Source: Marinifilum sp. (GTDB taxonomy: Bacteria > Bacteroidota > Bacteroidia > Bacteroidales > CG2-30-32-10). From it: DNA of 64,000 nt. A program made the translations under genes and the position numbers. Positions 2,214 through 47,692 of this stretch are shown here, piece by piece. The stretch is from the NCBI GenBank assembly GCA_020718065.1, contig DYDE01000005.1, forward strand, positions 1-64,000, given 5' to 3'. Positions within the stretch are counted from its first letter, which is position 1; each line of letters opens with the position of its first letter. The notes beneath the pieces are model-generated. The model searched no databases. It was not told the DNA's origin and worked only from the letters and a program-made list of their open reading frames with translations.

Positions 2214-2452
2214 AATATTTTAATATAATTATAAAAATTTGGTATAAATAGATGTTACACAGAACTTTTTAATATATTCTCTAAATTGTATTTACAATAT
2301 AATTATCAGCAATGGCAATGATGTAAAAATAGGAAAAGTTATTATCAATCATTAATTCTGATAATTTTTAAATATAAAAAAGGCTGGGGGTTTCTCTGGC
2401 CTTTTTTTGTATAATCAAAAATTATTATCCGTTTTAATTCTAATATGATATT

Positions 2453-2596
2453 GAAGATTCTTCGCTTCGTTTCACGCTCAGAATGACATGCACATTGGTT
2501 CTGGGAGGAGGGGTTAATGGCGGCGAAGCCGCCATTAACCCCTCCTCCATAAAATCCCAGAAACAAACTGTCATTCTGAGCAAAGCGAAGAATCTC
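2453..2596. repeat. Nested palindromic element (outer imperfect inverted repeat enclosing a perfect 21-bp stem)
   Basis: Outer arms are gaagattcttcgctt..gctcagaatgaca (2453-2488) and tgtcattctgagcaaagcgaagaatctc (2569-2596). Inner arms are ggaggaggggttaatggcggc (2504-2524) and gccgccattaacccctcctcc (2528-2548), separated by a gaa loop. Confidence 0.8.
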
Positions 2597-2661
2597 CTAT
2601 GTTTTACCCAGACACTAATAAATCAAAAACCATAAATAATAATTCACACAGAAATAAGCAT

Positions 2662-2669
2662 TACCTTTG
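2662..2669 (+). promoter_or_regulatory. Candidate Bacteroidota -7 promoter box (TACCTTTG)
   Basis: Matches TAnnTTTG, 22 nt upstream of the ATG at 2692. Confidence 0.4.
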
Positions 2670-2691
2670 CATTATTAAAATTCACTGCGTT

Positions 2692-3237
2692 ATGCACCTT
2701 CTAAATAGAATTATCATTATTACATTTCTTTTTGGCATTAGTTATTCAGCAATGTCGCAAAAGGACAGCATACCCAAAAACCCATTTAAAGACAAATTAT
2801 ATACCGGTGGTGGATTAGGTTTGCAAATTGGCGATTACACATTAATACAGGTTTCCCCAATACTGGGATACAATATTACAGAAAATCTATCAGTAGGTAT
2901 AGGCGCAACTTATCAATATACAAAGTACAGGCAATACAATTATGATTTTGTAAGCAATATGTATGGAGGAAGTATATTTGGTCGCTATATTATTTGGAGA
3001 AGCATATTTGCCTACGCAGAAGACGAATTGCTCAATATCGAATACAGAGAACAAGTAAACAATATTATATATAAGAAAAGAACAAATGTAAATAGCTTGT
3101 TTGTTGGCGGAGGAGTTCGTCAGTTGGTTGGGGAAAACTCAGCCATGGTACTAATGTTATTATGGAATCTTAACGAAACTCCTTACACCCCATATAACAA
3201 TCCTATAATTAGAATAGGATTTGAAATCGGATTATAA
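2692..3237 (+). CDS. Hypothetical secreted / outer-membrane beta-barrel-like protein
   Basis: The internal ATG at 2692 gives signal peptide MHLLNRIIIITFLFGISYSAMSQ. Alternating aromatic/Gly-rich segments follow. The upstream part of the ORF (2599-2691) overlaps the promoter box and the palindromic element. Confidence 0.45.
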   Translation: MHLLNRIIIITFLFGISYSAMSQKDSIPKNPFKDKLYTGGGLGLQIGDYTLIQVSPILGYNITENLSVGIGATYQYTKYRQYNYDFVSNMYGGSIFGRYIIWRSIFAYAEDELLNIEYREQVNNIIYKKRTNVNSLFVGGGVRQLVGENSAMVLMLLWNLNETPYTPYNNPIIRIGFEIGL

Positions 3238-3249
3238 AACATCAATAAA

Positions 3250-3429
3250 TTGACACAGGAAATTATTGTATATATTATTCTATTGGTAGTTTTGACTTTT
3301 GCAGGCTTTCTTATCTATAAATCATTTAAAAAACCAGCAAAATGTTGCAACGAATGTGCGAATAAAAGCTGTGATGGTTGTCCCCTCGATGATCTGAAGA
3401 AAGAAATAGAAAAGAAAAAAGTGCACTAA
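3250..3429 (+). CDS. Small Cys-rich membrane protein (resembles the FeoB-associated Cys-rich family), TTG start
   Basis: Hand translation: (L/M)TQEIIVYIILLVVLTFAGFLIYKSFKKPAKCCNECANKSCDGCPLDDLKKEIEKKKVH, stop at 3427-3429. One TM helix then a CC..C..C..C cluster. Absent from the ORF track because it is 59 aa with a non-ATG start. Confidence 0.4.
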   Translation: MTQEIIVYIILLVVLTFAGFLIYKSFKKPAKCCNECANKSCDGCPLDDLKKEIEKKKVH

Positions 3430-3714
3430 AGTGAACTAGAGTTTGAAGTGCCTAACCTGAATAATTCATGAATATATTTAGAATATTGTATTTCTTCGTG
3501 TTACTTCGTGATGTACTTTGAGTTACTTTGTGGAAAAAAATTATTAACCACAAAGATTCACAAAGGATTGCACAAAGGCACACAAAGTTTATGAATTAAT
3601 CAGGCTAAAGTAATAAACAAAAAACCACAAATTCCAAAATTATTCCTAATCAGTGAATCTGTGGTTATACTTTGAAAAATTGTAAATCGTCAATCCAAAA
3701 TCGTAAATCGTAAA

Positions 3715-5028
<1,314 letters not shown>

Positions 5029-5030
5029 TT

Positions 5031-5061
5031 AAAAAAGGATAAAGCAAATATACTTTATCCT
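5031..5061 (-). terminator. Rho-independent terminator after rplQ
   Basis: 8-bp stem ggataaag/ctttatcc (5037-5044 / 5053-5060). On the minus strand it is followed by a U6 run (plus-strand a31-a36). Confidence 0.55.
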
Positions 5062-5088
5062 AATATTTAAACAATGAAAAAAAGAAAA

Positions 5089-5649
5089 TTATTCTGGAGT
5101 TTCAGTTGATGTATTTTCAGTTTCTTCCTTTTTTGCCTTTGGTTTTTTAGTTGTTTCTTTTTTCTCAGCAACAGGTTTTTCAGTCTTTTCTGTTTTTGCA
5201 ACTACTTCCTCTTTTTTGGTTTTAGTTTTAGAACCACGACGGGTAGTTTTTGCCTTTGCTTTAGATTCTTTAGTAATACCTAACATGTTTTCGTTATAAT
5301 CAACTAATTCTATCATACACATTTCGGCATTATCACCCATACGATTTCCAGTTTTTAAAATTCTGGTGTAACCACCGGGGCGTTGTCCAACTTTAGTAGA
5401 TACTTCTCTGAAAAGTTCAGTAACAGCAGTTTTATCTTGCAAGAAACTAAATACAGTTCTTCTAGAATGTGTTGAGTCTGATTTTGACTTTGTAATTAAA
5501 GGTTCAACAACTGTTCTTAACGCTTTGGCTTTAGCCAGAGTTGTATATATGCGTTTTTTCATTATTAAGGATGATGCCATATTAGCTAGCATAGCCTTTC
5601 TATGAGAGCTTGTTCTTCCTAAATGATTGATTCTTTTTGCGTGTCTCAT
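5089..5649 (-). CDS. rplQ: 50S ribosomal protein L17 with a Lys/Glu-rich C-terminal extension
   Basis: [24 protein letters not shown]... Last gene of the alpha operon. Confidence 0.95.
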
Positions 5650-5654
5650 CTCAA

Positions 5655-6647
5655 TTAATCTTTATCTAATTTATATTTTGTAAGATTCATTCCAAAATGT
5701 AAGCTTTTTGCTTTCACTAATTCTTCTAACTCGGTTAAAGATTTTTTACCAAAGTTTCTGAATTTTAATAAGTCTGCTTTGTTAAAAGCAACAAGTTCTC
5801 CTAAAGTTTCAACTTCAGCAGCTTTTAAACAATTCAATGCTCTAACAGATAAATCCATATCAACCAATTTGGTTTTGAGCAATTGTCTCATATGCAATGA
5901 AGTTTCATCAAACTCTTCGGTAGCAGTTTTTTCTTCGCTATCAAGGGTAATTTTCTCATCAGAAAACAACATAAAATGTTGAATTAAGATTTTAGCTGCT
6001 TCTTTTAAAGCGTCTTTTGGATTTATTGACCCATCAGTAGTAATTTCAAAAATAAGTTTTTCAAAGTCGGTCTTCTGTTCAACGCGGTAATCTTCTATAC
6101 TGTATTTAACATTTTTAATTGGAGTAAAAATAGCATCTACTGGTATAATTCCAATTACAGAACTTGTAGGTTTATTATCTTCAGCAGAAACATAACCTCT
6201 CCCCTTATCAATAGTAATTTCTAATGAAATTTTGATTGAAGGATCCATATTACAGATAACAATATCTGTGTTTAATACCTGAAAACTAGAAAGGAATGCA
6301 TTTATATCACCAGAAGTAAAAGTATTTTTACCAGCTATTGTAATATTTACCTTTTCGTTGTTTACATTATCTATTTGTCTTTTAAAACGAATTTGCTTTA
6401 AATTAAGAACTATTTCTGTAAGATCCTGAACTACTCCTTTAATGGTAGAGAATTCGTGGTCAACACCTTCAATTTTAACAGAAGTAATTGCAAAACCTTC
6501 AAGAGAAGAAAGCAATATTCTTCTTAAAGCATTGCCTATTGTAATACCATAACCGGGTTCCAAAGGACGAAACTCAAATCTTCCCTTGAAATCATCCGAT
6601 TCAAGCATTACCACCTTATCGGGTTTTTGAAAAGCTAATATTGCCAT
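5655..6647 (-). CDS. rpoA: DNA-directed RNA polymerase subunit alpha
   Basis: 330 aa. N-terminal dimerisation domain plus C-terminal HhH domain ([21 protein letters not shown]). Operon position fits. Confidence 0.97.
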
Positions 6648-6686
6648 TTAATATATGTATTTATAAATGATATCAATTAAAAAAAA

Positions 6687-7292
6687 TTATTTAGAATACA
6701 ACTCGACGATAAGTTGTTCTTTAATGTTTTCAGGAATTAAAGATCTTTCTGGGTAGTTCAAAAATTTACCTGTCATTGAATCTTTATCCCATTCTAACCA
6801 GTTAAACTGATTTGTTCTTGAAACTAAAGCTTCTGTAATAACTTCCAATGATTTTGATTTTTCACGAACACCAACTACATCACCTGGTTTAAGTGTAATA
6901 GAAGGAATGCTTGTAACTTTACCATTGAGAGTAATATGCCTGTGATTAACCAACTGACGTGCTGCATCACGAGTAGGTGCAATACCTAAACGGTAAACAA
7001 CATTATCAATACGAGCTTCAATTAGTTGTAATAAAACTTCACCAGTGATACCTTTTTTACTAGCCGCTTTTGTAAATACATTTCTAAATTGTTTTTCCAA
7101 GAAACCATAAGTATATTTTACTTTTTGCTTTTCCTGCAACTGAACACCATATTCAGATAATTTTCTTTTTCTTTTAGAAACACCATGTTGACCAGGAGGA
7201 TAATTTTTCTTTTCAAAATATTTATCTGCACCATAAATGGGTTCTTTGAATTTTCTTGCGATTCTTGTTTTTGGGCCTATATATCTTGCCAT
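6687..7292 (-). CDS. rpsD: 30S ribosomal protein S4
   Basis: [15 protein letters not shown]...; S4 domain; operon position. Confidence 0.97.
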
Positions 7293-7337
7293 ATTGTAAA
7301 ACTATTGTTTTTTATTATTAAAATGCTTCAAAATTAA

Positions 7338-7727
7338 TTATACTCTTCTACGTTTAGGAGGACGACAACCATTATGAGGCAATGGAGTAATGTCAAATAT
7401 TTCAGACACTTCTATTCCTGCCGCATTAAGAGTTCTAATTGCAGATTCGCGACCTGCACCAGGTCCTTTTACATAAACTTTTACTTTACGTAAACCCATA
7501 TCATAAGCAACTTTTGCACAATCGTTTGCGGCAGTTTGAGCTGCGTATGGAGTGTTCTTTTTTGAACCTTTGAAACCCATTTTACCTGCAGATGACCAAG
7601 AAATAACTTGTCCGGTTGAATTAGTTAATGAAATGATTACGTTATTAAATGAAGCAAAAATATGAGCTTCACCTAATGCTTCAACTTTTACAACTTTCTT
7701 TTTTGCGGGTTTTACTGTTTTAGCCAT
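7338..7727 (-). CDS. rpsK: 30S ribosomal protein S11
   Basis: [17 protein letters not shown]..., C-terminal [13 protein letters not shown]. Confidence 0.97.
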
Positions 7728-33797: not shown

Positions 33798-34961
33798 TTA
33801 TTGACAAGGTAATGGAGTAGTATTTACTTTAATTACCTTATTGGTAGAAGCAGTCCCAAACCAATTAACAGTTTCCTGCACCATTTTCCATTGAAAATTA
33901 TAAGTGCCACTTGTAGTAGGAGCTTTTACAGTGAAATAGAAAGTAACAGATTCACCTGGTTCAACAGGACTTTTTGGCAAATTAACTCGATGAATACCCC
34001 AAATTAAATTATTTTCTGGATTTTGTGATCCAAGTTTAAATGGAGTACTTCCTCCGGATATCCAGGTGGAGGTGCCAGTGTTTTTAAAAGTCATAAAAAC
34101 TGTAAAATCCTGACCTGGATCCACCTTTGATGGTGCACTCATTCTTACAAAAGAAGCATTATTAACTAAAGTTGGTGCTGTAACTGTAATTACTTTATTT
34201 TCTGTGTGTTCCCCAAACCATTCAATTAATTCCTGTACCATTCTCCACTGAAAGTTGTAGATGCCAGGAGTTGAAGGTGCTATACATTCAAAATTAAAAG
34301 TCGCATTTTCCCCTGGATTTATGGGCGAAGATTGAAGTTCATCTCTTATTGTTGCCCATAGATTCCAAGGATCATTCAGGGTGCCGAGTCTGTGAGGATT
34401 ACTTCCACCGGTAACCCAAGGTTTTGTGCCGTTGTTCTTAAATATAACTTTTGCCTGAAATGTTTGTCCTGCCACAACAGAAGATGGGGCTGTCAACGAA
34501 ATAAATTGGGCATTGTTTTGCTGAGGAACAACTGTAATTACCTTGTTTGCAGATGACTCTCCAAACCATTCAATTAATTCCTGCACCATTCTCCATTTAA
34601 AATTATAGTTACCAGGAGTTGAAGGTGCCACACAGTTGAATGTAAATGTTACACTCTGCCCCTGAATAATGGGTGTCGATGAAAGATCCACCCTGATTGT
34701 TGCCCACAAATTCCAGGGATCATTTTCTGTACCAAGTCTGTAAGGATTTGCACCACTACTTGTCCATGCTGTTGTCCCCGTATTCATAAATGTAATTACT
34801 GTCTGAAAAGTTTCACCAACAACTACCTGGCTGGGTACTGCTATTGAAACAAAATGTGAATTGTTTTGTGCACCCACAAATGCAGTGCTTAAACCTAAAA
34901 AAACTGAGAGCAAAAGAAGTCGCTTCAGCAAAATTGAAAATCTTGTTTTTAATGTTTTCAT
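33798..34961 (-). CDS. Secreted protein with three tandem ~115-aa Ig-like repeats (NBR1/FW-like)
   Basis: Signal peptide. Three copies of F.N.G...W...G.NP.RLGT.NDPWNLWATIR...APSTPG.YNF.WRMVQE.IEWFGE. The family name is from memory of the NBR1 Ig-like domain pattern. Confidence 0.55.
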   Translation of the reverse strand: MKTLKTRFSILLKRLLLLSVFLGLSTAFVGAQNNSHFVSIAVPSQVVVGETFQTVITFMNTGTTAWTSSGANPYRLGTENDPWNLWATIRVDLSSTPIIQGQSVTFTFNCVAPSTPGNYNFKWRMVQELIEWFGESSANKVITVVPQQNNAQFISLTAPSSVVAGQTFQAKVIFKNNGTKPWVTGGSNPHRLGTLNDPWNLWATIRDELQSSPINPGENATFNFECIAPSTPGIYNFQWRMVQELIEWFGEHTENKVITVTAPTLVNNASFVRMSAPSKVDPGQDFTVFMTFKNTGTSTWISGGSTPFKLGSQNPENNLIWGIHRVNLPKSPVEPGESVTFYFTVKAPTTSGTYNFQWKMVQETVNWFGTASTNKVIKVNTTPLPCQ

Positions 34962-34981: not shown

Positions 34982-35014
34982 TGCTTACTCTTTAATGGGT
35001 TTTCGGCATCCCCC
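34982..35014 (-). promoter_or_regulatory. Conserved 5'-leader motif (copy 1), 20 nt upstream of the ATG
   Basis: Sense strand GGGGATGCCGAAAACCCATTAAAGAGTAAGCA. About 25/28 aligned positions are identical to the element upstream of the peptide gene at 41328-41360. Confidence 0.5.
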
Positions 35015-35483
35015 TTTTTTAATTTATAATAAAATTGAAATGATAAAAATTATTAAAAAAACTAAATTAAATGAAGAGACAAATAGATACTTTATATAAT
35101 TTTATTTAAACTTTAAAAACACAAATAATTAACATGGCAATTGTTTTTGGCACTATACAGTAAACATCAACAATAAACACAAAACCCGATACAGCAAAAA
35201 TGCAGCTTATTTTAAATAATGGATTAGTAAAACCGGGATTTGATATCAACCCTCTTCGGCTATGAGGCTGTGGCCCTTTGGGTTGAGGCTGTGCCACCTC
35301 TCCACTATCCTGTTGACTTACCTGCACTCTTATTTTATTTTAAACCACAAGCTGGCGCTCTTTTTTAGTGATCGTTGCACAACTTCAGAATCAATTTTTT
35401 TTCTAGAAAGAGAACCCTGCTATGCGGCATGAAAATTATTAACAACATTGGTGGACAGCCAAAACCGAACGTAGTTAGAAAAA

Positions 35484-37142
35484 CTAATTGATCACAATTT
35501 TCTTATTTACCTTTTCATTTTGCATATATATAATTAAATTATAAACTCCTGCTTTTAATCCAGTAGTTTTAATAATTACTTTAGATTCATTGGTATTAGT
35601 GTCATAAACAACTTTCCCTAAAAGGTCACAAATACTGATATGAAGAATTGGAAAGCTTCCAGTAATAGTCAATAATCCTTCAGAAGGATTCGGAAATAAA
35701 GAGATATTGGCAGGTGATAACTTCTCAATCCCACCATTTCCTACTCTAATATATGATAATTTAATCTCAGAGCTGTTTCCCCAAGTGTTAATAATATTTA
35801 AGGTAACATCATAAGTACCAACAATATTATAAGTTACAATAGGATTGGAGGAATTGGATGTACCAGGTGTACCTCCTGGAAAAGTCCAGTTGTATGTGGA
35901 TGTTGAATGACCACCTGATATTATTGAAAAAAGAACCTGTTCTCCCTGGTCAACAGCTGTGTCATTGGCTGTAAAATTTGTTTTAGCAAGTTTACTTGTG
36001 AATTTATACATACCATCATTATTTGGATTATTGTTCCAACTACCAGCAAAAGCAACAGAATCATTTAACCATTTAATAGCAAGAAAATGTTTATTGTCTG
36101 TGGAAGGCATTTTTTGCCATGTATGTCCACCATCAAAGGAATAAGTTACTCCAGAATTAGTATGTTTAATATTATCCGAAGTTTCTTCTGAATGATTAAT
36201 ATTCTGTCTATCATTTATCATAGATGCATTGTGTCCTGTAGATACATATGTGTTGGGAGAACCAGGAATAGCTGCAAGTGCAAAAAGATTTATAGGGCCG
36301 GTACTGTTCACTAAAGTCCAAGTATTACCGCCATCCGAAGTTTCATGAACATTCATAGTAGTTGCTGTAGAAGTTGCAAAACCGATTAATCCATGATTTT
36401 CATCATGAAAGGCAATATTTTTAAACCAACAATTTGGGGGAATTGTAATTCCAGTTGGTTTTCTAATCCAATGGTATCCTCTGTCCGTTGAAATATACAA
36501 ACTAGATGTAGAAGTAATAAAACAAAACATGCTATCACCAACTGTTTCAAAAGCACGAACAAATCCAATTTCTCCGCCTGTTTGAATCGTATCATTAATA
36601 TTTATTTGAGGAATCCGATTCCAAGCAGTTCCACCGTTTGAAGTAGTATAAATTTCAAAATAACCATTTCTGGTATTCCCATAAAAAACACCTTCGTTTG
36701 CGTTCCAAAAATGCAAACCATTAACATATGTGGATGAATTATTTTCTACAAAAAATTGTTGAACCCATGTTGCTCCACCATCTGTAGTTTTATATATACC
36801 ACATACGCTATCCTGGGCTCCATAAGAATGGTAAATACCTGCCCAAGCAATATTTTCATCAAAAGCAGAAATATTTGCTATATCATATATAGCTGTTCCA
36901 GAAATGACCTGACCTACTGTCCATTTTGCTCCTCCATTGGTAGTTCGAGAAAACTCATTAGATATATAAGGAGCATTTAATCCATCTCTGGCACTAATCC
37001 ATGCAATATCTTTACTTACTACACTTATATAGAAAGCTCCAGTAGATTCATTTGGGAAACCTGATACCTGCATTAACCACTGCGCATCAGTAAAAGAGGA
37101 AAACACAAGTATTAATCCTGAAAGTAATAATAATTTTTTCAT
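35484..37142 (-). CDS. BNR/Asp-box (sortilin/Ycf48-like beta-propeller) protein with PKD domain and T9SS C-terminal sorting domain
   Basis: Signal peptide. Asp-box motifs TTNGGAKW, TTDGGATW, TSNGGTAW, STDRGYHW, TSDGGNTW, SFDGGHTW. PKD-like FTANDT...YNWTFPGGTP...GTYDVTL. C-terminus LFPNPSEGLLTI...GVYNLII. Confidence 0.75.
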   Translation of the reverse strand: MKKLLLLSGLILVFSSFTDAQWLMQVSGFPNESTGAFYISVVSKDIAWISARDGLNAPYISNEFSRTTNGGAKWTVGQVISGTAIYDIANISAFDENIAWAGIYHSYGAQDSVCGIYKTTDGGATWVQQFFVENNSSTYVNGLHFWNANEGVFYGNTRNGYFEIYTTSNGGTAWNRIPQININDTIQTGGEIGFVRAFETVGDSMFCFITSTSSLYISTDRGYHWIRKPTGITIPPNCWFKNIAFHDENHGLIGFATSTATTMNVHETSDGGNTWTLVNSTGPINLFALAAIPGSPNTYVSTGHNASMINDRQNINHSEETSDNIKHTNSGVTYSFDGGHTWQKMPSTDNKHFLAIKWLNDSVAFAGSWNNNPNNDGMYKFTSKLAKTNFTANDTAVDQGEQVLFSIISGGHSTSTYNWTFPGGTPGTSNSSNPIVTYNIVGTYDVTLNIINTWGNSSEIKLSYIRVGNGGIEKLSPANISLFPNPSEGLLTITGSFPILHISICDLLGKVVYDTNTNESKVIIKTTGLKAGVYNLIIYMQNEKVNKKIVIN

Positions 37143-37384
37143 AGTTTTACAGATTTAAAAGTTATTTATCAAATGTAATTTCAGTAATTTGATTTGAATC
37201 TTATAAATCTTCAAGAGGTATAAAAAATCGTTAAATGGTCAATTATTTAGATATACTATGAGATGTTAATAATAAATCAATCTAGTGCCATTTAGATTTT
37301 TTTAAGTTTATAATATGAATACAAAATATATAAAACTCTCAAAAAAAAATTATTTGTCTGAAATTGGATCAAAAAAGAGAAGAA

Positions 37385-37418
37385 AATAACCATTTAGCGA
37401 AAATAAAAACCGTTTAAA
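37385..37418 (+). promoter_or_regulatory. Two direct repeats (ATAACCATTTAG / AAAACCGTTTAAAG), candidate LytTR binding sites
   Basis: AACC cores at 37388-37391 and 37408-37411, spacing 20 bp. The 11-mer AACCGTTTAAA is identical to the minus-strand 41488-41478. Confidence 0.5.
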
Positions 37419-37450
37419 GTAAAAACGGAATTTGTATATTAAATAAGTAT

Positions 37451-37458
37451 TATTTTTG
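37451..37458 (+). promoter_or_regulatory. Candidate -7 box (TATTTTTG) with -33 TTTG at 37431-37434, for the kinase/regulator operon
   Basis: Matches TAnnTTTG. It lies 39 nt after the proximal AACC core and 49 nt before the ATG at 37508. Confidence 0.45.
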
Positions 37459-37507
37459 AGTTTGAAATAAAAATGTAAAACATTGTGTAAGTTTAGTTTG
37501 GTAAATT

Positions 37508-38584
37508 ATGTTAAGTGAAATTTATAATAAAAGGACAAATTTTTGGATTTACCAAATTCTGGGGTGGATTGGATTTTATATAATGGTAACAACGAGAGAA
37601 ACCTTACAGATAATACAGGATAAGTCGAATTTAAGCAACATAATTGAGGAATCTCTTTCATACATAATTTATGTCCTTTTGGGATTTTTATTTACTATAT
37701 TACTCAGATACATTTATCAATGGTTCTATCGAAAACAAAATCAAATAATCAAAACTACTGGTTTTATTATACTTATGACCTTTTTAGTTACCTTAATTCA
37801 TACAGTTTTGGTTAATTATATTTATTCTTTACTAATAAAACCGATTAACACACCTAATTTAATATTTCTTTTAATTCATATTATTTGGAATTTGCCTGTT
37901 TATTTTGGGTGGAGCATTCTATATTTCGGTATTAAATACTGGAATCAATCGGTTTTTGAGAAGGAAAAATCAGAAAAAGCAATTTTTTTAGCTCAAACCG
38001 CACAATTACAAATGCTGCGATATCAATTGAATCCACACTTTCTGTTCAATTCACTAAATTCTATTACCGCATTGATCGATGAAGATAAAAAGACTTCAAA
38101 GGATATGATAGCTGAACTGGCGGATTTTTTGCGTTACTCATTAATTAGCAAGAACTATACTGATATTCCTTTGGAAGAAGAACTTAAGGCAATTAGACTT
38201 TATTTTTCGATAGAAAAGAAAAGATTTGAAGAAAAGCTGGAAGTTGAATATGAGATCGCTCCTGAAGCAGAAAAGTTTCCAGTGTTAAGCTTGCTGTTGA
38301 ATCCAATTGTCGAAAATGCGATCAAATATGGTATGCTCACCAGCGTTTTGCCATTGAGAATTGCCATCATTGCTAAGATTGTAAATCAACATCTGATATT
38401 GCAAGTTACAAATACCGGTAAATGGATTGACTCTGTCAAAAATGATAATAATAATGGGACCAGAACTGGTTTAGAAAACATTAAATTACGACTTCTTAAC
38501 GCCTATTCTGACAAAGCATCATTTCATATTGGACAGATTGATGATAAAGTAATTGCTACAATTGAAATACATGGAAAATCATAA
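37508..38584 (+). CDS. Sensor histidine kinase, LytS/YehU type (multi-TM input domain)
   Basis: ~5 N-terminal TM helices. LQMLRYQLNPHFLFNSLNSI (His_kinase region) and N-box LLLNPIVENAIKYG. Confidence 0.85.
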   Translation: MLSEIYNKRTNFWIYQILGWIGFYIMVTTRETLQIIQDKSNLSNIIEESLSYIIYVLLGFLFTILLRYIYQWFYRKQNQIIKTTGFIILMTFLVTLIHTVLVNYIYSLLIKPINTPNLIFLLIHIIWNLPVYFGWSILYFGIKYWNQSVFEKEKSEKAIFLAQTAQLQMLRYQLNPHFLFNSLNSITALIDEDKKTSKDMIAELADFLRYSLISKNYTDIPLEEELKAIRLYFSIEKKRFEEKLEVEYEIAPEAEKFPVLSLLLNPIVENAIKYGMLTSVLPLRIAIIAKIVNQHLILQVTNTGKWIDSVKNDNNNGTRTGLENIKLRLLNAYSDKASFHIGQIDDKVIATIEIHGKS

Positions 38585-39299
38585 ATATACTGCCATCATA
38601 GTTGATGATGAGCGCTTAGCAAGAAACGCCTTAAAAACATTATTGGAAGAAATTGATGAAATTGAATTGACAGGAGAGGCTGATAGTGTGTCTAATGCCA
38701 TATCATTGATTGCTAAAGTGAAGCCAGATATTATCTTTCTTGACATTCAAATGCCTGGAGAATCTGGTTTTGATCTGATTGAAAAAATTTCAACAAATAT
38801 TAAAATCATATTTGTTACTGCTTTTGATGAATTTGCATTGAGGGCATTTGAAGTTAACGCCATTGATTACTTGTTGAAGCCTGTTTCTGTTATACGTTTA
38901 AAAACCAGTATAGCCAGGCTATTCGAAGAAAATAGTATAGATGAAACAGCAAAAAAAAAGTTAGTTGCAGGCGATCGCTTATTTCTTCTCTTTAATAACA
39001 ATTATCTTTTTCTTAAAATTGAAAATATTTTACACATTAGTTCTTCTGGAGATTATTCAGAGCTTCATCTGATTGATGGGAAAAAGGGTTTAACAAATAA
39101 ATCAATGCAAGAATGGGAAGCAAGGCTTCCTATAAATACCTTCTGCCGTATACACCGCTGTACTATCATTAATATGGATTACGTAGTAAAGGTGGATGAA
39201 TGGTTTAATAATGCTTTTCGAATTCATATGAAGGGAATAGAAGAACCTTTTATAATGAGCAGGCGATTTTCATCAGTAATCCGAAACAGGTTCAATTGA
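38571..39299 (+). CDS. LytTR-family response regulator
   Basis: REC domain (IIVDDERLARN...DIIFLDIQMPGESGFDL). C-terminal LytTR domain (ILHISSSGDYSELHL...FCRIHRCTIINMDYV). The start at 38571 overlaps the kinase stop. Confidence 0.88.
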   Translation: MENHKYTAIIVDDERLARNALKTLLEEIDEIELTGEADSVSNAISLIAKVKPDIIFLDIQMPGESGFDLIEKISTNIKIIFVTAFDEFALRAFEVNAIDYLLKPVSVIRLKTSIARLFEENSIDETAKKKLVAGDRLFLLFNNNYLFLKIENILHISSSGDYSELHLIDGKKGLTNKSMQEWEARLPINTFCRIHRCTIINMDYVVKVDEWFNNAFRIHMKGIEEPFIMSRRFSSVIRNRFN

Positions 39300-39339
39300 A
39301 AAATCATTAATCGAATCAGTTAGCATAATACATTTAATT

Positions 39340-39372
39340 CCCTTGTTATTATTCCACTTAAAATAACAAGGG
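39340..39372. terminator. Hairpin between the convergent regulator and rSAM genes
   Basis: 11-bp stem cccttgttatt/aataacaaggg, followed by tttatt on the plus strand. Confidence 0.55.
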
Positions 39373-39376
39373 TTTA

Positions 39377-40867
39377 TTAAATAATATCATATATAAACGC
39401 AGGTGCTTTATTGCATCTGGGATCAGGAAAATCCCAATTTTCATCTCCATACACTTTTAACACATCAGCCCAACATTTGTTAGGATATTTATTACAACAT
39501 TCATCAAGTATTTCGCAATTTTTACATGCACTTTCTTCCCGAAAATCATCTTTTGTTAAATTGACCCATTTTAATGAAGCTGGAGAATTCCATACTTCCT
39601 CAATAGAATTGTTAAGAATATTTCCAATAATAAATTTTTGTTTCCAATACATTTGCTCGCAAATAGTAACATTGCCATCAGGAAGAACATACATATGCGA
39701 ACGATTTGCCGAACAAACAGCTCCCGGAAATGATTTACTTCCTTTTTCAGCTGTAAAATAACCTCGGTCCAAATGAGATTTATCTATATCAATCCTTAAT
39801 TTTTGCAATTTATTAAGTTCATCTATATTCTTAAGAGCTTCTTCACGTTCTTGTTTTTGAAGTTTTATCTTTTCAAAATCATTAGTACTATATAGGGATT
39901 TAAATGCAATTCTAACTTGCCAGCATTTAATTTTTTTTAATGATGATAGATAGTTGAGCATTTCCAATAATTCATTTTTATCAGCATTTAATCTAGTTAA
40001 AATAGAAATAACATGATATGAGATTCCATATTCATCCATCGTTTCTAATGTTTTCTTCATATTTGCAGCATAGTTTCCAGAGACACCAAGAATTTCATAC
40101 AGCTTTTGTGGAGAAAGAGAATCAAAGGAAAATTGAAAAGTTAGATTTGTAAATTGTGTCAATTTAATGATATCCTCTTTCTTAATAGGGATTTTGGTCG
40201 AAATAAATATTTTTTCATATCCATGTTTGTAAAGCTCTTTTAAAAGATCGTACCATCTGTCATAGAGGAAAAACTCTCCACCACCGATTTGTATTTCTTT
40301 TAATTTTATTTTTTTTGATTCTACAATTAAATCTATAATACGATCAAAAGGAATGGTGCACGAAAAATCATTATTTTTGTCAGCATAGCAATAAATACAA
40401 TTTGTTACACAGCGATTGGTTACCATAATGGTTATGGAAGAAGGGCATTTCATTAACCTGGCCGATTCAAAATCTAATTCTGAATAAGTAAAATCTTCGG
40501 GAGTATAAGTATAGTTGATTTTAAGCTGTTTTTTGTATTTAATGACGATCTGTTTAGGGAACCTAAAGGTAGCTCCATTATACTGCGTATATATGGTTTC
40601 TTTATTTTCGATAAAGGGATTAATAAGCGCAATAGTTTCTTTTTTATTTAAACTTAAAAATTCGGTTAAGTTCTCAACCGCCTTATCAATGGTTATAGGA
40701 TTAGAAAAAAAAGACAAGATCATTGCCTGGGCCGGATGAATAAAAGATAACCATTCTTTGTTTGAATTTTCACATTGCGATTCGGAATTAGCAATAATTA
40801 CACTTCTTTTAATATCATTTCTGAAGTTGTAGTCAGGATTAAGGATAAATTTTTCTGAGTTTGTCAT
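39377..40867 (-). CDS. Radical SAM/SPASM-domain peptide maturase with an N-terminal RRE-like domain
   Basis: CVTNCIYC is CX3CX2C. C-terminal auxiliary-cluster motifs are CSANRSHMYVLPDGNVTIC (CX12GX4C) and CKNCEILDECC (CX2CX5C). The ~130-aa N-terminal extension has a PqqD-like pattern (IHPAQAMILSFFSNPITIDKAVENLTEFL). Confidence 0.85.
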   Translation of the reverse strand: MTNSEKFILNPDYNFRNDIKRSVIIANSESQCENSNKEWLSFIHPAQAMILSFFSNPITIDKAVENLTEFLSLNKKETIALINPFIENKETIYTQYNGATFRFPKQIVIKYKKQLKINYTYTPEDFTYSELDFESARLMKCPSSITIMVTNRCVTNCIYCYADKNNDFSCTIPFDRIIDLIVESKKIKLKEIQIGGGEFFLYDRWYDLLKELYKHGYEKIFISTKIPIKKEDIIKLTQFTNLTFQFSFDSLSPQKLYEILGVSGNYAANMKKTLETMDEYGISYHVISILTRLNADKNELLEMLNYLSSLKKIKCWQVRIAFKSLYSTNDFEKIKLQKQEREEALKNIDELNKLQKLRIDIDKSHLDRGYFTAEKGSKSFPGAVCSANRSHMYVLPDGNVTICEQMYWKQKFIIGNILNNSIEEVWNSPASLKWVNLTKDDFREESACKNCEILDECCNKYPNKCWADVLKVYGDENWDFPDPRCNKAPAFIYDII

Positions 40868-40922
40868 AGGTATCGTATAATATTAAATACTAATTATATT
40901 TGTTATTAAAGTAAATTATGAA

Positions 40923-40961
40923 GCAATTCTTCTACCATGTTTTTCTAAGTAGAAGAATTGC
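40923..40961 (-). terminator. Intercistronic 13-bp hairpin between the precursor and maturase genes (candidate leaky terminator or mRNA stabiliser)
   Basis: gcaattcttctac (40923-40935) pairs with gtagaagaattgc (40949-40961). There is no strong U-tract on the minus strand. Confidence 0.5.
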
Positions 40962-41041
40962 ATTTTAAACACTTACAAATATGAATACAATCATGTTTTT
41001 GTAACGACATATTGTAAATTTCTGTAAGTTTTTAGATAAAT

Positions 41042-41305
41042 TTAATACCACTGAATAATTCTATGATTTCGGGTACAATCACCTCCACCAGCACCCCACA
41101 TTCGTCCAGAACACACATTTCCTCCGCAAAAATTATTACTCAAGCCTCCGTCACAAGCTTGATGGGATATACATTCAGCTCCAGTGGTGCAGGTTCCAAC
41201 ATTATCACCGCACTCACCACCATTAATTTCATTTAATTGTTTGGCATTCATTAATTCGCCTAGATTTAACTTTTCATTAGTTAATTCACTTAATTTTTTT
41301 TTCAT
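41042..41305 (-). CDS. RiPP precursor peptide: double-glycine leader plus Cys/Gly-rich core
   Basis: The leader is MKKKLSELTNEKLNLGELMNAKQLNEINGG (30 aa). The core ECGDNVGTCTTGAECISHQACDGGLSNNFCGGNVCSGRMWGAGGGDCTRNHRIIQWY (57 aa) has 7 Cys and 12 Gly. The gene lies directly upstream of, and co-oriented with, the rSAM/SPASM gene. Confidence 0.75.
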   Translation of the reverse strand: MKKKLSELTNEKLNLGELMNAKQLNEINGGECGDNVGTCTTGAECISHQACDGGLSNNFCGGNVCSGRMWGAGGGDCTRNHRIIQWY

Positions 41306-41327
41306 GATTATTTATAATTAATATTTT

Positions 41328-41360
41328 TGCTTACTCTTTATAGGATTTTCAGCTTTCTCC
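41328..41360 (-). promoter_or_regulatory. Conserved 5'-leader motif (copy 2), 22 nt upstream of the ATG
   Basis: Sense strand GGAGAAAGCTGAAAATCCTATAAAGAGTAAGCA. See copy 1 at 34982-35014. Confidence 0.5.
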
Positions 41361-41416
41361 TATTGTTATTGCGCGCAAACAATATCTTTATAAATTCCAT
41401 AGCGTTTTTATTTTTA

Positions 41417-41424
41417 CAAAACTA
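41417..41424 (-). promoter_or_regulatory. Candidate -7 box (TAGTTTTG) for the precursor/maturase transcript
   Basis: Plus-strand caaaacta matches TAnnTTTG. It lies 39 nt downstream of the proximal AACC repeat core, with no good -33 element. Confidence 0.45.
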
Positions 41425-41457
41425 TTTAATAACTAAACTATAATAAAAGGGTTTTCT

Positions 41458-41516
41458 TCTAGTGGTTATTATATAGTTTTAAACGGTTACTTTTAAAGTT
41501 AAGCGGTTAATTATAA
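41458..41516 (-). promoter_or_regulatory. Three direct repeats (TTAACCGCTTAAC / GTAACCGTTTAAA / ATAACCACTAGAA), candidate LytTR binding sites
   Basis: On the minus strand the AACC cores end at 41505, 41485 and 41464, spacing 20 and 21 bp. Confidence 0.5.
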
Positions 41517-42061
41517 TAAACTTATACTTAAAAAAAAAAACGAATATGATGTTTAAAGAATTTACTTTGTTTTTAATCTTTATAGAGAATTGTTTTTAAT
41601 AATTTGTATTATAAATAAATAAAAATAGATAAAATCTATTTTGGCATAATTTTTGTTATTTTAAATTTATTGATTTTTTTTCAATTCGAGTAACTAAATA
41701 TCATCATTCAACGTCATATACAAAAACAGAAATTTATAGATAGAACTTTAACTCTTTACTTAATTTTTTTATTTATAGCTATAGCTTATTATTAGGTAGG
41801 GGAAAAGTTCTTTGACGTACTGAATTGATTTAAAATAGGGATAGTTTGTTTAAGGACTGTATCTCTTTTTTAATTATTCGAGAGTAAATACCTGAACTTA
41901 TTTAATTAAACATGTCTTAATGTTTTTAATGCATAACTTGTATAGTTTGCAGGGAGCATGTTTTGGAAATTTATTTTTCTGAAATGGCAAAATATATCGC
42001 CTTTACAGGGTTTATTTATACAACATTAAGACTTAAATATTAATTTCTAAAAAAAACAAAA

Positions 42062-43009
42062 ATGTTACAAAAACAGAATAATTGGCTGAACATGGCAACA
42101 ACTAGCTTATTGGTGCTGGACACAGAACCTCTAGTTGTAAATAGCATTGTGGAACTAGGGGAATCGGTAAGTGGTTTGAGAAGCTGTGTTAAAAGTATTC
42201 GTGCAACTGCAACTGAGCAGGTGCAGAATATAAAAGGTGTAGCTCAGGAAAAGCTACTAAATAAAACTAATCTGGCTCATTCTGCAGCTTTGGTAGCAGC
42301 AGGGCTTAAAACTTTTGCTCATAAAAACAAGATGTATGATCTTGAAACAAGGGTTAAGTGTAAAGAAAAATCATTGTTAAAGCTGAATGATAATATGTTG
42401 ATAGAAAAGGCAGATTTTATTTTACAGAAAGTGAAAGAACATCAAACTGCATTAATGCCATATGGTATTGTAGTTGCTGACACTACAAACTTGTCGGATT
42501 ATTTAACAATTTATTTAGAAAAATATAATAATCCAACTTTGGCTATTGAAAAACGCAAGTTCTATACTAAAAAACTTAGTGTTCAATTTTCGATATTATC
42601 GGATATACTTCGCAATGAAATTGATGAATTGATGATAATTATTGCTAATACGCATCCAGATCTGTATAAACTTTATAAAAATGCAAGGGTTATAATTGAT
42701 CGCCATGGTAAGACTAAGGAGGATAAGGTGGTTGAAGGTATTGGTGATATTTCAACAACTGTTTGTGCTGCTTTTGATGGTAGTGTGATAGAAGGAGTTG
42801 AATTAGAATTAATAGACAGTAAGGATAAAGTAGTTTTAACTGTTGAAACAGATGAAATGGGAGTAGGTTATTTTGAAAAAGTTGTTGCAGGAACTTACAG
42901 GATAAGAGCAAAACAGGATACTTACATTGATAAATTGTCGGAAGAAATAATTGTTAATCCGGGTGATGAGCTTGAAATTGATATGATGCTTGAGGCTTTG
43001 ATTGAATAA
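42062..43009 (+). CDS. Hypothetical protein: helical N-terminal region plus a C-terminal carboxypeptidase-regulatory-like (prealbumin fold) domain
   Basis: No signal peptide or TM helix. The C-terminus GSVIEGVELELIDSKDKVVLTVETDEMGVGYFEKVVAGTYRIRAKQDTYI resembles CarboxypepD_reg-type beta-sandwiches. Confidence 0.4.
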   Translation: MLQKQNNWLNMATTSLLVLDTEPLVVNSIVELGESVSGLRSCVKSIRATATEQVQNIKGVAQEKLLNKTNLAHSAALVAAGLKTFAHKNKMYDLETRVKCKEKSLLKLNDNMLIEKADFILQKVKEHQTALMPYGIVVADTTNLSDYLTIYLEKYNNPTLAIEKRKFYTKKLSVQFSILSDILRNEIDELMIIIANTHPDLYKLYKNARVIIDRHGKTKEDKVVEGIGDISTTVCAAFDGSVIEGVELELIDSKDKVVLTVETDEMGVGYFEKVVAGTYRIRAKQDTYIDKLSEEIIVNPGDELEIDMMLEALIE

Positions 43010-43074: not shown

Positions 43075-43440
43075 CCACTTCGGAAGAACGGGGGATGGAA
43101 CGCTGATGACGCTGATTGATCTGATTTTCGTTGATATTTTCTCGCAAAGGCGCTAAGACGCATATCTTTAGAGTTGGAAGAACGGAGGATGGAACGTTGA
43201 TGACGCTGATTTATTATGATTATTATGATTTTGCCACCAAAGCTCAAAAACACCAAATTTCTCCAAACTTTATCTATAATTAAGAAATTGAACGCTGATG
43301 ACGCTGATTGAGCTGATTTTCGCTGATATTTTCTCGCAAAGGCGCTAAGACGCATATCTTTAGAGTCGGAAAAACGGAGGATGGAACGCTAATGACACCG
43401 ATTTATTATGATTATTATGATTTTGCAACCAAAGCACAGA
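43075..43440 (+). repeat. Interspersed-repeat cluster, same family and orientation as 30091-30425
   Basis: ggaacg.tgatgacgctgat modules at ~43097, 43190, 43291 and 43386. Around 43190-43270 the element reproduces ~85 nt of the 120-bp unit (..tgattttgccaccaaagc.caaaaacaccaaatttctccaaa). Confidence 0.8.
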
Positions 43441-43696
43441 AGCAAGATATCTAAACTAAAGTTTTAATGAAGGCATGAGATTGACCTCTCCCCTAGCCCT
43501 TATCCAATTGGAGAGGGGAATTGCATTTGTGGTGATTATTGAGTTTCTAGAAATAAAGAAAGAGATAGATGCTATCGTTTGCAGACGATAAATATACCTT
43601 GAAAGATTTTGTTTTTATAGACCTCAATATTACGGATGCTTTGGAATGAATCGGAGATTTATCGGAGATGAATTTGACTGGAATTGGAACAATTAA

Positions 43697-45636: not shown

Positions 45637-46719
45637 ATGATCAGATTCATTATAAAACGACTTATATATGGCTTAGCGGTTATGCTTGGAGTAGTTACCC
45701 TTGTTTTTATTTTATTTAATGTGCTTCCTGGTGATCCAGCAAGAATGATGCTGGGACAGAGAGCAGATATGGCATCAGTTGAGGCTATAAACAAAGATTT
45801 AGGGAGAGACAAACCATTATTGACACAATATTTTAATTACTTAAACGATTTATCTCCTATTTCTGTCCATAATGTGAATGATAACGAAAGTTATTGGTAT
45901 CTAAACCCTGAAAAATATAGCCCAAGTACTGTTCTTTTTAAAATATCGAAAGACAATGCAGTGGTTTTAAAATATCCATATATGCGCAGGTCTTACCAAT
46001 CTAAACGTAATGTTACAGAAATACTTGCAAGTGCTTTTCCAGCAACAGCTCTACTTGCAATAACAGCTATGATTTTTGCTTTTGTGGTGGGGACAGGGTT
46101 AGGAACCTTAGCAGCTATATATAAAAACAGCATTTTTGATAGAATATCATTGGTTATATCTGTATTAGGTATGTCGGTACCATCTTTTTTTGCAGCAATA
46201 ATTATAGCATGGGTATTTGCATTTGTTTTAGCAAATTATACAGGATTAAATATGTTTGGGAGTATGTACACCATTGATGATTTTGGAGATGGTGAATATA
46301 TAGATTTGAAAAATTTAATTCTTCCAGCCATCACATTAGGCATAAGGCCATTGGCTGTTATTGTTCAATTGATGCGAAGTTCTATGATAGATGTATTGTC
46401 GCAAGATTATATCAGGACAGCAAGAGCAAAAGGATTAAGTTTTTACAAAGTAATTACCAGACATGCGTTTAAAAACGCCCTGAATCCTGTAATAACAGCA
46501 GCATCAGGTTGGCTTGCATCTCTTTTAGCAGGAGCAGTATTTATAGAATATGTATTTGACTGGAAAGGAATTGGGGTAGCGATGGTTGAAGCATTAGAAA
46601 AATATGATTTTCCTGTAGTAATGGGAGGAGTATTGTTTATTTCAATTATTTTAATAGTAATAAACATCCTGGTTGATATTTCTTATGCATTGATAGACCC
46701 TAGAGTGAAGTTGCAATAA
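45637..46719 (+). CDS. ABC transporter permease (DppB/OppB-like), without partner genes in the window
   Basis: 360 aa, 6 TM. EAA-like loop DYIRTARAKGLSFYKVITRHAFKNAL. N-terminus MIRFIIKRLIYGLAVMLGV is typical of the family. Confidence 0.8.
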   Translation: MIRFIIKRLIYGLAVMLGVVTLVFILFNVLPGDPARMMLGQRADMASVEAINKDLGRDKPLLTQYFNYLNDLSPISVHNVNDNESYWYLNPEKYSPSTVLFKISKDNAVVLKYPYMRRSYQSKRNVTEILASAFPATALLAITAMIFAFVVGTGLGTLAAIYKNSIFDRISLVISVLGMSVPSFFAAIIIAWVFAFVLANYTGLNMFGSMYTIDDFGDGEYIDLKNLILPAITLGIRPLAVIVQLMRSSMIDVLSQDYIRTARAKGLSFYKVITRHAFKNALNPVITAASGWLASLLAGAVFIEYVFDWKGIGVAMVEALEKYDFPVVMGGVLFISIILIVINILVDISYALIDPRVKLQ

Positions 46720-46721
46720 TT

Positions 46722-46761
46722 GGTTGACAAGTAGACAAGTTAACTTGTCTACTTGTCAACC
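46722..46761. repeat. Perfect 40-bp palindrome built from four GACAAGT/ACTTGTC half-sites
   Basis: ggTTGACAAGTAGACAAGTT|AACTTGTCTACTTGTCAAcc. It begins 3 nt after the permease stop and ends 47 nt before a -7 box. Confidence 0.85.
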
Positions 46762-46807
46762 CACAAAGGAAGTATCCATTTTCAACTATCTAATTAATAA
46801 TAAAAAT

Positions 46808-46815
46808 TACTTTTG
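46808..46815 (+). promoter_or_regulatory. Candidate -7 box (TACTTTTG) for the membrane LytTR gene
   Basis: Matches TAnnTTTG, 10 nt upstream of the ATG at 46826, which implies a very short leader. Confidence 0.4.
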
Positions 46816-46825
46816 GTTTGAAATT

Positions 46826-47692
46826 ATGAAAATAAAGGAATATTTTAAACAGCCTTACCCTGCAAATGATAATGCATGGAAAAATATTGCATTTATAAGT
46901 GTTTTTATACCTGTTTTCCTTATTATGTTCCAACCTTTTGGAATGAGTTTATATGAAAATAAATACAAAGCATTAAAAATACTGGGTTATGGCGGTGTTA
47001 CATTTGTAGTTGCAGCAATCAATCAAATACTTCTACAGTATATTTTTAAAAAGACATTTTCAGAAAGTAATTGGACAATAGGAAAAAACATGCTCGGTAT
47101 GTTATATACTATTTTTACTATCGGTCTTGGCAATTATATTTATACCAGTCTGGTCTTTTCATTTCTTCAATTTGATATATCACAAATTGTTATCTTTCAA
47201 ATAGTAACATTGATGGTTGCTGTAATTCCTGTAGGTTTAATCACAACTTTGCGCTATAATACTTTATTAGCAAAAAATCTTAAAATAGCAAGAGAGATAA
47301 ACATACAATTACCAAATCAAAAATTGGTACCAGACATACGAATGATCCGTTTTTCTTCTGAAAATGAAAAAGATATTATTGAAATAGCTGCTAATGATTT
47401 TCTATATATTGAATCAAATGGTAATTATTTAGAAATAAATTACATTGAAGAAGGAAAACTAAAAACATCCTCAGTTCGTAGTACCCTAAAAAGAGCTGAA
47501 GCATCTATGTCTGTTTCCACATCTATTGTGAAATGTCATCGGGCATTTTATGTAAATATCAATAAAATTAAAAAGGTTAATGGAAATTCCCAAGGTTATA
47601 AACTTTGTATAGAACATACTGAAAAAGAAATTCCGGTTGCCAGAAACTATTCCAAAACTATTAAGGAATTATTGAGCCCATCTTCAAAATAA
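46826..47692 (+). CDS. Membrane-anchored LytTR-domain DNA-binding protein (one-component)
   Basis: ~4-5 TM helices then a LytTR domain (FLYIESNGNYLEINYIEEGK...IVKCHRAFYVNINKIKKV). There is no receiver domain. The track's TTG start at 46724 lies inside the palindrome, so the ATG at 46826 is preferred. Confidence 0.75.
   Translation: MKIKEYFKQPYPANDNAWKNIAFISVFIPVFLIMFQPFGMSLYENKYKALKILGYGGVTFVVAAINQILLQYIFKKTFSESNWTIGKNMLGMLYTIFTIGLGNYIYTSLVFSFLQFDISQIVIFQIVTLMVAVIPVGLITTLRYNTLLAKNLKIAREINIQLPNQKLVPDIRMIRFSSENEKDIIEIAANDFLYIESNGNYLEINYIEEGKLKTSSVRSTLKRAEASMSVSTSIVKCHRAFYVNINKIKKVNGNSQGYKLCIEHTEKEIPVARNYSKTIKELLSPSSK

Follow-up and report, generated by a model that had tools for sequence, protein, structure and literature searches.

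The window analysed here is a stretch of 64,000 nt from Marinifilum sp. (contig DYDE01000005.1), and coordinates refer to the whole window unless another locus is named. It was found to contain a two-component system on the plus strand and, convergent to it, a two-gene cassette for a modified peptide. The source is a single uncultured groundwater Bacteroidales genome; the organism, from a groundwater metagenome, has been assembled twice, and both assemblies carry the locus. The first gene (37508..38584, + strand) encodes a membrane histidine kinase of the LytS/YesM type with 358 aa, in which the N-terminal region, hydrophobic and about 150 aa long, was followed by the presence of the PF06580 His_kinase domain with its NPHFLFN histidine motif; this domain was the sole Pfam match (3.9e-26, 91.6 bits). 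The second gene (38571..39299, + strand), which shares 14 nt with the end of the kinase gene, encodes a response regulator with a REC domain (Response_reg PF00072, 1.8e-22) followed by a LytTR DNA-binding domain (PF04397, 1.2e-19). The best NCBIfam matches of the regulator, BtsR (147.8 bits vs 246) and LytR (145 bits vs 375), were found to stay far below their equivalog cut-offs, and equivalog status as BtsS/BtsR (YehU/YehT) or LytS/LytR was not reached in that database.

The third gene (39377..40867, - strand) encodes a peptide maturase of 496 aa with an N-terminal domain resembling a RiPP recognition element (RRE; RiPP, ribosomally synthesised and post-translationally modified peptide), a radical S-adenosylmethionine (rSAM) domain (Radical_SAM, 3e-15) containing the CxxxCxxC cysteines C153/C157/C160, and a SPASM domain (4.5e-14). 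The fourth gene (41042..41305, - strand) encodes a precursor peptide of 87 aa, with a 30-aa double-glycine (GG) leader ending in GG at residues 29-30, followed by a 57-aa Cys/Gly-rich core in which all 7 Cys were found. The peptide gene is separated from the enzyme gene by 174 nt and lies outside the kinase operon. Open reading frames (ORFs) and Pfam domains give these identities directly, and the coordinates, identities and 174-nt gap reported by the first-pass annotation agree with them. No GC anomaly was seen around the cassette, and neither insertion scars nor flanking inverted repeats were found around it.

The operator of the kinase operon (37388..37417, + strand; motif scan and matrix) was found to contain two 9-bp direct repeats, ACCATTTAG and ACCGTTTAA, with 11 bp between them, followed by the presence of a TAnnTTTG box of the Bacteroidota -7 type (37451..37458, + strand). 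The AACCR portion of the repeats was AACCA at 37388 and AACCG at 37408, with a period of 20. The operator of the peptide promoter (41458..41508, - strand; motif scan and matrix) was found to contain three 9-bp direct repeats in the arrangement ACCGCTTAA-11-ACCGTTTAA-12-ACCACTAGA, with the minus-strand units AACCG at 41508, AACCG at 41488 and AACCA at 41467 (periods 20 and 21), followed by a TAnnTTTG box at 41417..41424 (- strand). At both promoters the start of the proximal repeat was found 43 nt from the start of the box, with 38 bases intervening. AACC(G/A) direct repeats with a 20-21 bp period had been claimed for both promoters and are present above chance; an equal repeat-to-box distance of 39 nt had also been claimed, of which the equality stood and the count did not, the intervening bases being 38. 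A candidate third operator, GACCATTTA...TACCTCTTG (37209..37240, - strand), points at a divergent Sortilin/PKD gene (35484-37142) whose product is T9SS-secreted (T9SS, type IX secretion system).

The pattern AACCR-N15/16-AACCR was found 5 times in the window, with 0.62 matches expected, and three of the five matches fall within the two promoters. The composite pattern of repeats and box was found twice in the window and never in 100 shuffles. A weight matrix was built solely from sites outside the window, beside kinase orthologues, and was scored at 128,000 window positions; the null maxima had a mean of 11.3, a standard deviation of 2.4 and a highest value of 18.7. The kinase promoter was ranked first with a score of 29.5, followed by the two overlapping peptide-promoter pairs with scores of 17.7 and 17.3. 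The site facing the divergent T9SS gene was ranked fourth with 15.7, which lies within the null range, and is hence tentative. The four best matches of the window thus all fall in the locus. Scored as a three-repeat site, the peptide promoter reached 30.2 against a null maximum of 17.4. The remaining two AACCR pairs of the window were found outside the top 15 of the matrix, so the flanking positions add independent information. A scan for sigma-70-type promoters was uninformative (36 matches vs 31.8 expected). Between the peptide operator and the divergent gene at 42062-43009, which carries a CarboxypepD_reg domain, a non-coding region of about 540 nt with about 21% GC was found (41520-42061).

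The kinase-family sample consisted of 80 loci around kinase homologues, of which more than 6000 exist at E <= 1e-20; in 78 of the 80 loci the kinase gene was followed by the presence of a LytTR regulator gene. Within 600 nt upstream of the kinase homologues AACCR pairs were found to be enriched, 9 being observed where 1.35 would be expected (P = 1.2e-5). The repeat unit was ACCRYTTnA (9 bp) with spacers of 11-12 bp, and its extended form is approximately AACCRYTnnnCGA. Among orthologues on long contigs, the closest, at loci L167 and L168/L169 (55-56% identity), were found to contain AACCGTTTGCCGTTGCATTGAACCGTTTAAAGG and AACCGCTTGCCGGAATTTTAAACCGCTTAAAGG directly 5' of the kinase gene (AACCG-N15-AACCG), followed by the presence of TAnnTTTG 42 nt from the proximal repeat, compared with 43 nt in the window. 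The per-position frequency of TAnnTTTG is about 0.0009, and the whole promoter architecture was found to be kept at three Bacteroidota orthologue loci. Strong matrix matches in L051 and L070 were dismissed as promoters, being tandem repeats in coding or GC-rich DNA. The repeat unit and spacing of the window were found to match the experimentally verified LytTR operators ACCACTTAT-12-ACCGCTTAT and ACCGCTTGT-12-ACCGCTTAT, which lie just upstream of a promoter (PMC6193735). The claim of a shared LytTR-type operator at both promoters is borne out by this match and by the conservation of motif and geometry at the orthologous kinase promoters. The shared operator points to a self-regulated two-component operon together with a co-regulated GG-leader peptide gene, and direct control of both promoters by the regulator is well supported by these sequence features. 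The repeat-to-box geometry suggests activation rather than repression.

Where the window has the cassette, L167 and L168/L169 were found to hold a gene for a T9SS-secreted beta-propeller protein of the Vgb_lyase/SGL type (L167 9950-11116; L168 9901-11064). In the upstream regions of L097, L106, L111, L155 and L156, T9SS beta-propeller or TonB-dependent-receptor-like neighbours were found, with the repeat motif often facing them. Genes of these two kinds are probably the usual targets of the LytS/LytTR family.

The adjacency of the two-component system and the cassette could also be a coincidence, with the peptide-promoter repeats either non-functional or bound by another LytTR protein such as that encoded at 46724-47692, so that the two-component system would regulate only itself and its T9SS neighbour. 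LytS/LytTR pairs are so abundant that chance adjacency is likely a priori; a second LytTR protein is present in the window and a homologue of it lies 4 kb from the L001 cassette, and the half-sites of the peptide promoter match more weakly than those of the kinase promoter. Nonetheless, a matrix trained beside kinase orthologues picks the peptide promoter, the 43-nt geometry is identical at both promoters and nearly so (42 nt) at orthologue promoters, and the L001 peptide promoter does not contain the repeats despite the nearby membrane LytTR homologue. Coincidence is therefore considered quite improbable. The protein at 46724-47692 (+ strand) was found to contain 322 aa, hydrophobic in the N-terminal region and ending in a LytTR domain, as in a one-component, membrane-anchored regulator; its gene follows a lone ABC (ATP-binding cassette) permease gene (45637-46719), and its L001 homologue lies at 2343-3227.

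The enzyme of the cassette belongs to a family with more than 600 homologues across Bacteroidales, cultured members of Bacteroides, Phocaeicola, Parabacteroides and Segatella among them, in which the CxxxCxxC cysteines (C153/C157/C160 in the window enzyme) and the SPASM cysteines were found to be invariant. In most of the 80 rSAM loci sampled from this family, the 900 nt preceding the rSAM gene were found to contain small GG-leader ORFs with Cys. A leader hidden Markov model recovered the window peptide and 6 relatives (E 2e-15 to 3e-19), of which 5 are followed by an rSAM gene after no more than about 210 nt; the model reaches the close clade alone, and more distant precursors were located by position and GG motif. 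In the close clade the leaders were found to be conserved, and the cores, of 33 to 71 aa, kept only the Cys/Gly pattern. TIGR04149 (GG_sam_targ_CFB), which the first-pass annotation had named for the peptide, is a real model for an 'rSAM-modified RiPP', and some distant family peptides score 24-24.8 bits against its cut-off of 25; the window peptide gave no match to it even at E <= 10. The maturase family TIGR04148, also named there, was missing among the matches listed for the window enzyme and 27 family members. Against NCBIfam the enzyme reached no equivalog cut-off (best, mycofactocin maturase with 57.6 bits, cut-off 265), and the generic SPASM domain TIGR04085 was the sole model passed. 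The AlphaFold2 model of the enzyme (pLDDT, predicted local distance difference test, 91) was found to have its best fold matches in SuiB, SkfB and CteB, all of them RiPP maturases that begin with a recognition domain, and a sequence-profile search agreed with these matches. On the basis of this fold similarity and of the Cys-rich core, the maturase would cross-link the core, probably through Cys-derived thioethers.

Co-conservation of the two-component system with the peptide/rSAM pair, set beforehand as the refuting test for an autoinduced circuit, was found to be missing in both directions and in the closest relatives. The kinase or regulator was present in 0 of the 80 rSAM-family loci, and the enzyme or peptide in 0 of the 80 kinase-family loci. 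Among the close cassette relatives, regulators were found to be shuffled around a constant core of peptide and enzyme. The cassette of L001/L171 was accompanied by a divergent NtrC/sigma-54 regulator (5948-7315) and kinase (4615-5961) together with a MacB/FtsX permease. In L172, the single informative locus contributed by a metagenome scan, an extracytoplasmic function (ECF) sigma/anti-sigma pair (3175-5110) was found directly upstream of the cassette. L165/L166 contained a signal peptidase beside the cassette and no regulator, and L170, L174, L175 and L176 contained the cassette without a regulator. In L002, tandem peptide/enzyme pairs were found, and their neighbours are a bacteroidetocin-like peptide, a thioredoxin-like protein and a C39 exporter. 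Upstream of the L001 peptide, TGGCAC was found and no clear -12 GC element, and a sigma-54 promoter was not established there. Synteny of the flanking CarboxypepD_reg gene with L165 was set aside, the identity being 26% over 93 aa.

The peptide promoters of the close cassette relatives were found to contain no repeats (matrix scores <= 7.4). Window and L165 share a conserved 5' leader of the peptide gene, and the DNA upstream of the leader is not conserved. The leader is thus kept with L165 and the repeats are missing at the L165 promoters, which argues for promoter rewiring. These sequences are most simply read as a portable cassette whose promoter was replaced by, or recruited into, a LytTR regulon that this lineage already had.

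A full autoinduction circuit has also to be weighed, in which the matured and exported rSAM-cross-linked peptide would be the ligand of the kinase in a density-dependent positive loop, modelled on agr/com/pln/blp or on nisin, which is bacteriocin and inducer. With one operator common to sensor operon and peptide gene, the locus has the topology known from peptide-pheromone loops, close cassettes repeatedly adjoin membrane-linked sensory systems (the NtrC two-component system and the ECF sigma/anti-sigma pair), and quorum-controlled rSAM RiPPs are known in streptococci (PMC9389541). Kinase residues 1-150 were found to be 29-46% identical to the orthologues, compared with 54-70% in the catalytic part, which leaves room for a lineage-specific ligand; such divergence of the sensor region resembles that of most kinases and permits, but does not indicate, a new ligand. 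Cassettes beside three different membrane-linked sensory systems are likewise compatible with self-sensing and with cue-dependent antagonism alike. The first-pass claim of an autoinduced circuit is not sustained, however, since co-conservation of sensor and peptide fails in the 160 loci and among the close relatives, the kinase is of the PF06580 type and not of the AgrC/ComD/PlnB (HPK10) type, and the peptide lies outside the kinase operon. The 57-aa core far exceeds known pheromones in size, and an exporter/processing gene is missing from the locus. The operator is also present at orthologous two-component systems that lack a peptide in their vicinity and adjoin T9SS beta-propeller or TonB-dependent-receptor genes instead, so the ancestral input of the system was not this peptide. 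Autoinduction is an unlikely account that keeps some weight. If the peptide were both product and inducer, no earlier peptide-based, quorum-sensing-like loop of two-component autoinduction would have been described in Bacteroidota, and this one would have arisen when a LytTR regulon already in place captured a mobile RiPP cassette.

No C39 ABC exporter was found in the 64-kb window by phmmer with a C39 ABC exporter, and Pfam scans of the neighbouring genes agree; the absence of a C39-peptidase ABC exporter, reported earlier for the module, thus holds across the whole window. In the enzyme family, 49 of the 80 loci were found to have a full-length C39-peptidase ABC exporter no more than 10 kb away, and bare cassettes were common in the close clade. 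The metagenome-assembled genome (MAG) Cfx3-06 was found to contain both the bare L001 cassette and the L002 cluster with its C39 exporter, and the peptides of the two have the same leader family. The coexistence of exporter-less and exporter-bearing loci in one MAG and the frequency of bare cassettes make processing and export of the window peptide in trans likely. About 9 kb from the peptide gene, a CAAX/Rce1-like intramembrane protease gene (PF02517; 50378-51139, + strand) was found, and no link of it to the locus was established. CAAX/Rce1-like proteins are often annotated as bacteriocin self-immunity proteins.

The locus is therefore best read, with reasonable though far from complete confidence, as a bacteriocin-like, portable two-gene RiPP cassette whose promoter appears to have been rewired to the regulon of the adjacent LytS-type kinase and LytTR regulator, with export in trans. 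The cassette itself, as judged from its sequence and relatives, is a GG-leader Cys/Gly-rich precursor with an RRE-rSAM-SPASM maturase, of a family usually linked to a C39-peptidase ABC exporter. Several points weigh against this interpretation. The pairing of sensor and cassette was found in one genome only (the two assemblies of it), so it could be recent and untested by selection. The peptide-promoter pair scores of 17.3-17.7 fall inside the null extreme (maximum 18.7), and these pairs are compelling solely through the triple site and the shared geometry. The motif in more distant kinase homologues mostly faces a divergent gene, of the TonB-dependent-receptor-like or secreted-protein kind, and autoregulation is not universal in the family. 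A GG-leader exporter was not located for this organism in the 64 kb covered by the window.

The 5' leader of the peptide transcript was found to contain a DUF805b RNA motif (Rfam RF02914; 41328..41362, - strand; 40.3 bits, gathering score 35.6), which lies 22 nt before the start codon. Just upstream of it a palindrome or hairpin, TATTGTTTGCGCGCAATAACAATA, was found (41361..41384, - strand), of which the L165 copies are the palindrome-preserving variants GTGCAC and GCGTGC. DUF805b motifs were also found directly upstream of GG-leader peptide genes in L001 (7556-7590), L165 (1036-1070 and 1581-1615) and L002 (2223-2261); the L002 motif precedes the 51-aa bacteroidetocin-like peptide, which has no rSAM partner. 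Weaker copies, detected with a model built in this analysis, were found before distant GG peptides in L057, L061, L040 and L012. A second motif in the window (34982-35016, - strand; 42.6 bits) lies 20 nt upstream of a non-peptide gene (33798-34961), which encodes a 387-aa secreted protein with three N_BRCA1_IG Ig-like repeats. DUF805b is thus a general leader element and not specific to the circuit, since it also precedes a non-peptide secreted-protein gene and distant GG peptides. The main text of PMC5737381 contains no mention of DUF805b. In L002, two peptide genes were found to be preceded by another conserved leader, about 70 nt long (…AATCAGGAAACYCCAAACAGTAAYGGGGAAAGGTTACTGTAAAA) (~6455-6530 and ~7545-7615); no Rfam match was reported for it, and it may be a structured RNA. 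L165 also contained three matches to Acido-Lenti-1 RNA (RF01687; 9058-10210, - strand), one of them above the gathering score, adjoining a Y1 transposase gene.

Between the peptide and enzyme genes a hairpin with a 14-bp stem was found (40923..40961, - strand; z = -4.4, 0 of 200 shuffles), whose sequence is conserved in L001 and L165 and which is likely to be an attenuator setting the peptide:enzyme transcript ratio. A further hairpin with an 11-bp stem was found between the convergent operons (39340..39372, no strand assigned; z = -2.5) and is likely to be a bidirectional terminator. Downstream of the divergent 42062-43009 gene, two copies of a non-coding 158-nt direct repeat were found (43095-43252 and 43287-43444), which are 92% identical and gave no Rfam match.

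In the proposed mechanism, a cue sensed at the membrane would activate the kinase, followed by binding of the phosphorylated regulator to the tandem 9-bp ACCRYTTnA repeats, two at its own promoter for positive autoregulation and three at the peptide promoter, and possibly also to the two repeats facing the divergent T9SS gene. With the repeats placed identically upstream of TAnnTTTG in both main promoters, the regulator would activate transcription. The peptide transcript would bear the DUF805b leader, and read-through into the maturase gene would be limited by the strong hairpin that follows the peptide gene. The maturase would cross-link the core, probably by way of the thioethers, and a C39 exporter encoded elsewhere would cut off the GG leader and export the product, which would most likely be a bacteriocin-like antagonist.

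If this wiring is real, the locus provides the first operator/promoter architecture at the level of sequence for a very large uncharacterised LytS/LytTR family of Bacteroidota and Ignavibacteriota, namely ACCRYTTnA-11/12-ACCRYTTnA followed by 33-34 nt to TAnnTTTG. It would also be an example of a portable RiPP cassette that is plugged into LytTR, NtrC/sigma-54 or ECF sigma control by promoter replacement, and would allow regulated antagonism or signalling by peptides to be studied on a tractable case, in a phylum in which peptide communication is essentially undocumented. These statements are limited to one uncultured groundwater genome, and the logic itself is classical in Firmicutes.

Among known maturases, CteB and SkfB of the sactipeptide/ranthipeptide (SCIFF-type, six cysteines in forty-five residues) systems share with the locus enzyme the order RRE, rSAM and SPASM/twitch, the folds (6efn, 5wgg) and a Cys-rich substrate. 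They differ in that the identity is 13-16%, no family model was passed by the locus enzyme, and the thioether chemistry is predicted at the locus.

The streptide system (StrA/StrB/StrC) likewise contains an rSAM/SPASM maturase with an N-terminal peptide-recognition domain, the closest solved fold to the locus enzyme being SuiB, and its precursor and enzyme are under a dedicated adjacent signalling system (shp/rgg; PMC9389541), as would be those of the locus. Streptide regulation relies on a cytoplasmic receptor, Rgg, whose SHP pheromone is separate, whereas the locus contains a two-component system; the streptide cassette also contains its own peptidase/transporter and makes a Lys-Trp cross-link, in contrast to the Cys/Gly-rich core of the locus.

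Bacteroidales clusters with GG leaders and rSAM/SPASM enzymes have already been predicted in silico (PMC4573289; PMC10352776), and in these as in the locus a GG-leader Cys-containing precursor was found immediately upstream of the maturase. One published cluster, BGC5, contains a kinase and a regulator and is missing a transporter (PMC10352776). The locus differs from the predicted clusters in the lack of a TIGR04149 match and of exporter, pseudo-rSAM and membrane-fusion genes, and it alone was found under a LytTR operator, which was missing from all cassette relatives examined. In the literature searched, no characterised LytTR-controlled RiPP system in Bacteroidota turned up, in line with the earlier statement that no characterised example from this phylum was known.

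In Streptococcus mutans, HdrRM and BrsRM are LytTR regulatory systems that control bacteriocins. The circuits of Firmicutes differ from the locus in several respects. Their kinases AgrC/ComD/PlnB belong to HPK10 with HATPase_c_5 only, and HATPase_c_5 is listed for the quorum-sensing LytTR-family kinases (PMC8895600), whereas the locus kinase is of the PF06580 LytS/YesM type. At the locus the peptide lies outside the sensor operon, no AgrB or ComAB-like processing gene is present, the pairing is not conserved, the promoter contains the Bacteroidota TAnnTTTG box, and the peptide, with its 57-aa core, would be rSAM-modified. The likeness lies in the output. The locus regulator has the LytTR DNA-binding output of agr, comCDE, plnABCD, blp and S. 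mutans HdrRM/BrsRM, and in the Firmicutes LytTR circuits as in the locus 9-bp direct repeats are found just upstream of the promoter, at the regulator operon and at the GG-leader peptide gene. The locus spacers of 11-12 bp fall within the 11-13 bp used as the criterion for agr/com/pln/blp-type circuits, and the locus repeats are nearly identical to the published ACCACTTAT and ACCGCTTAT (PMC6193735).

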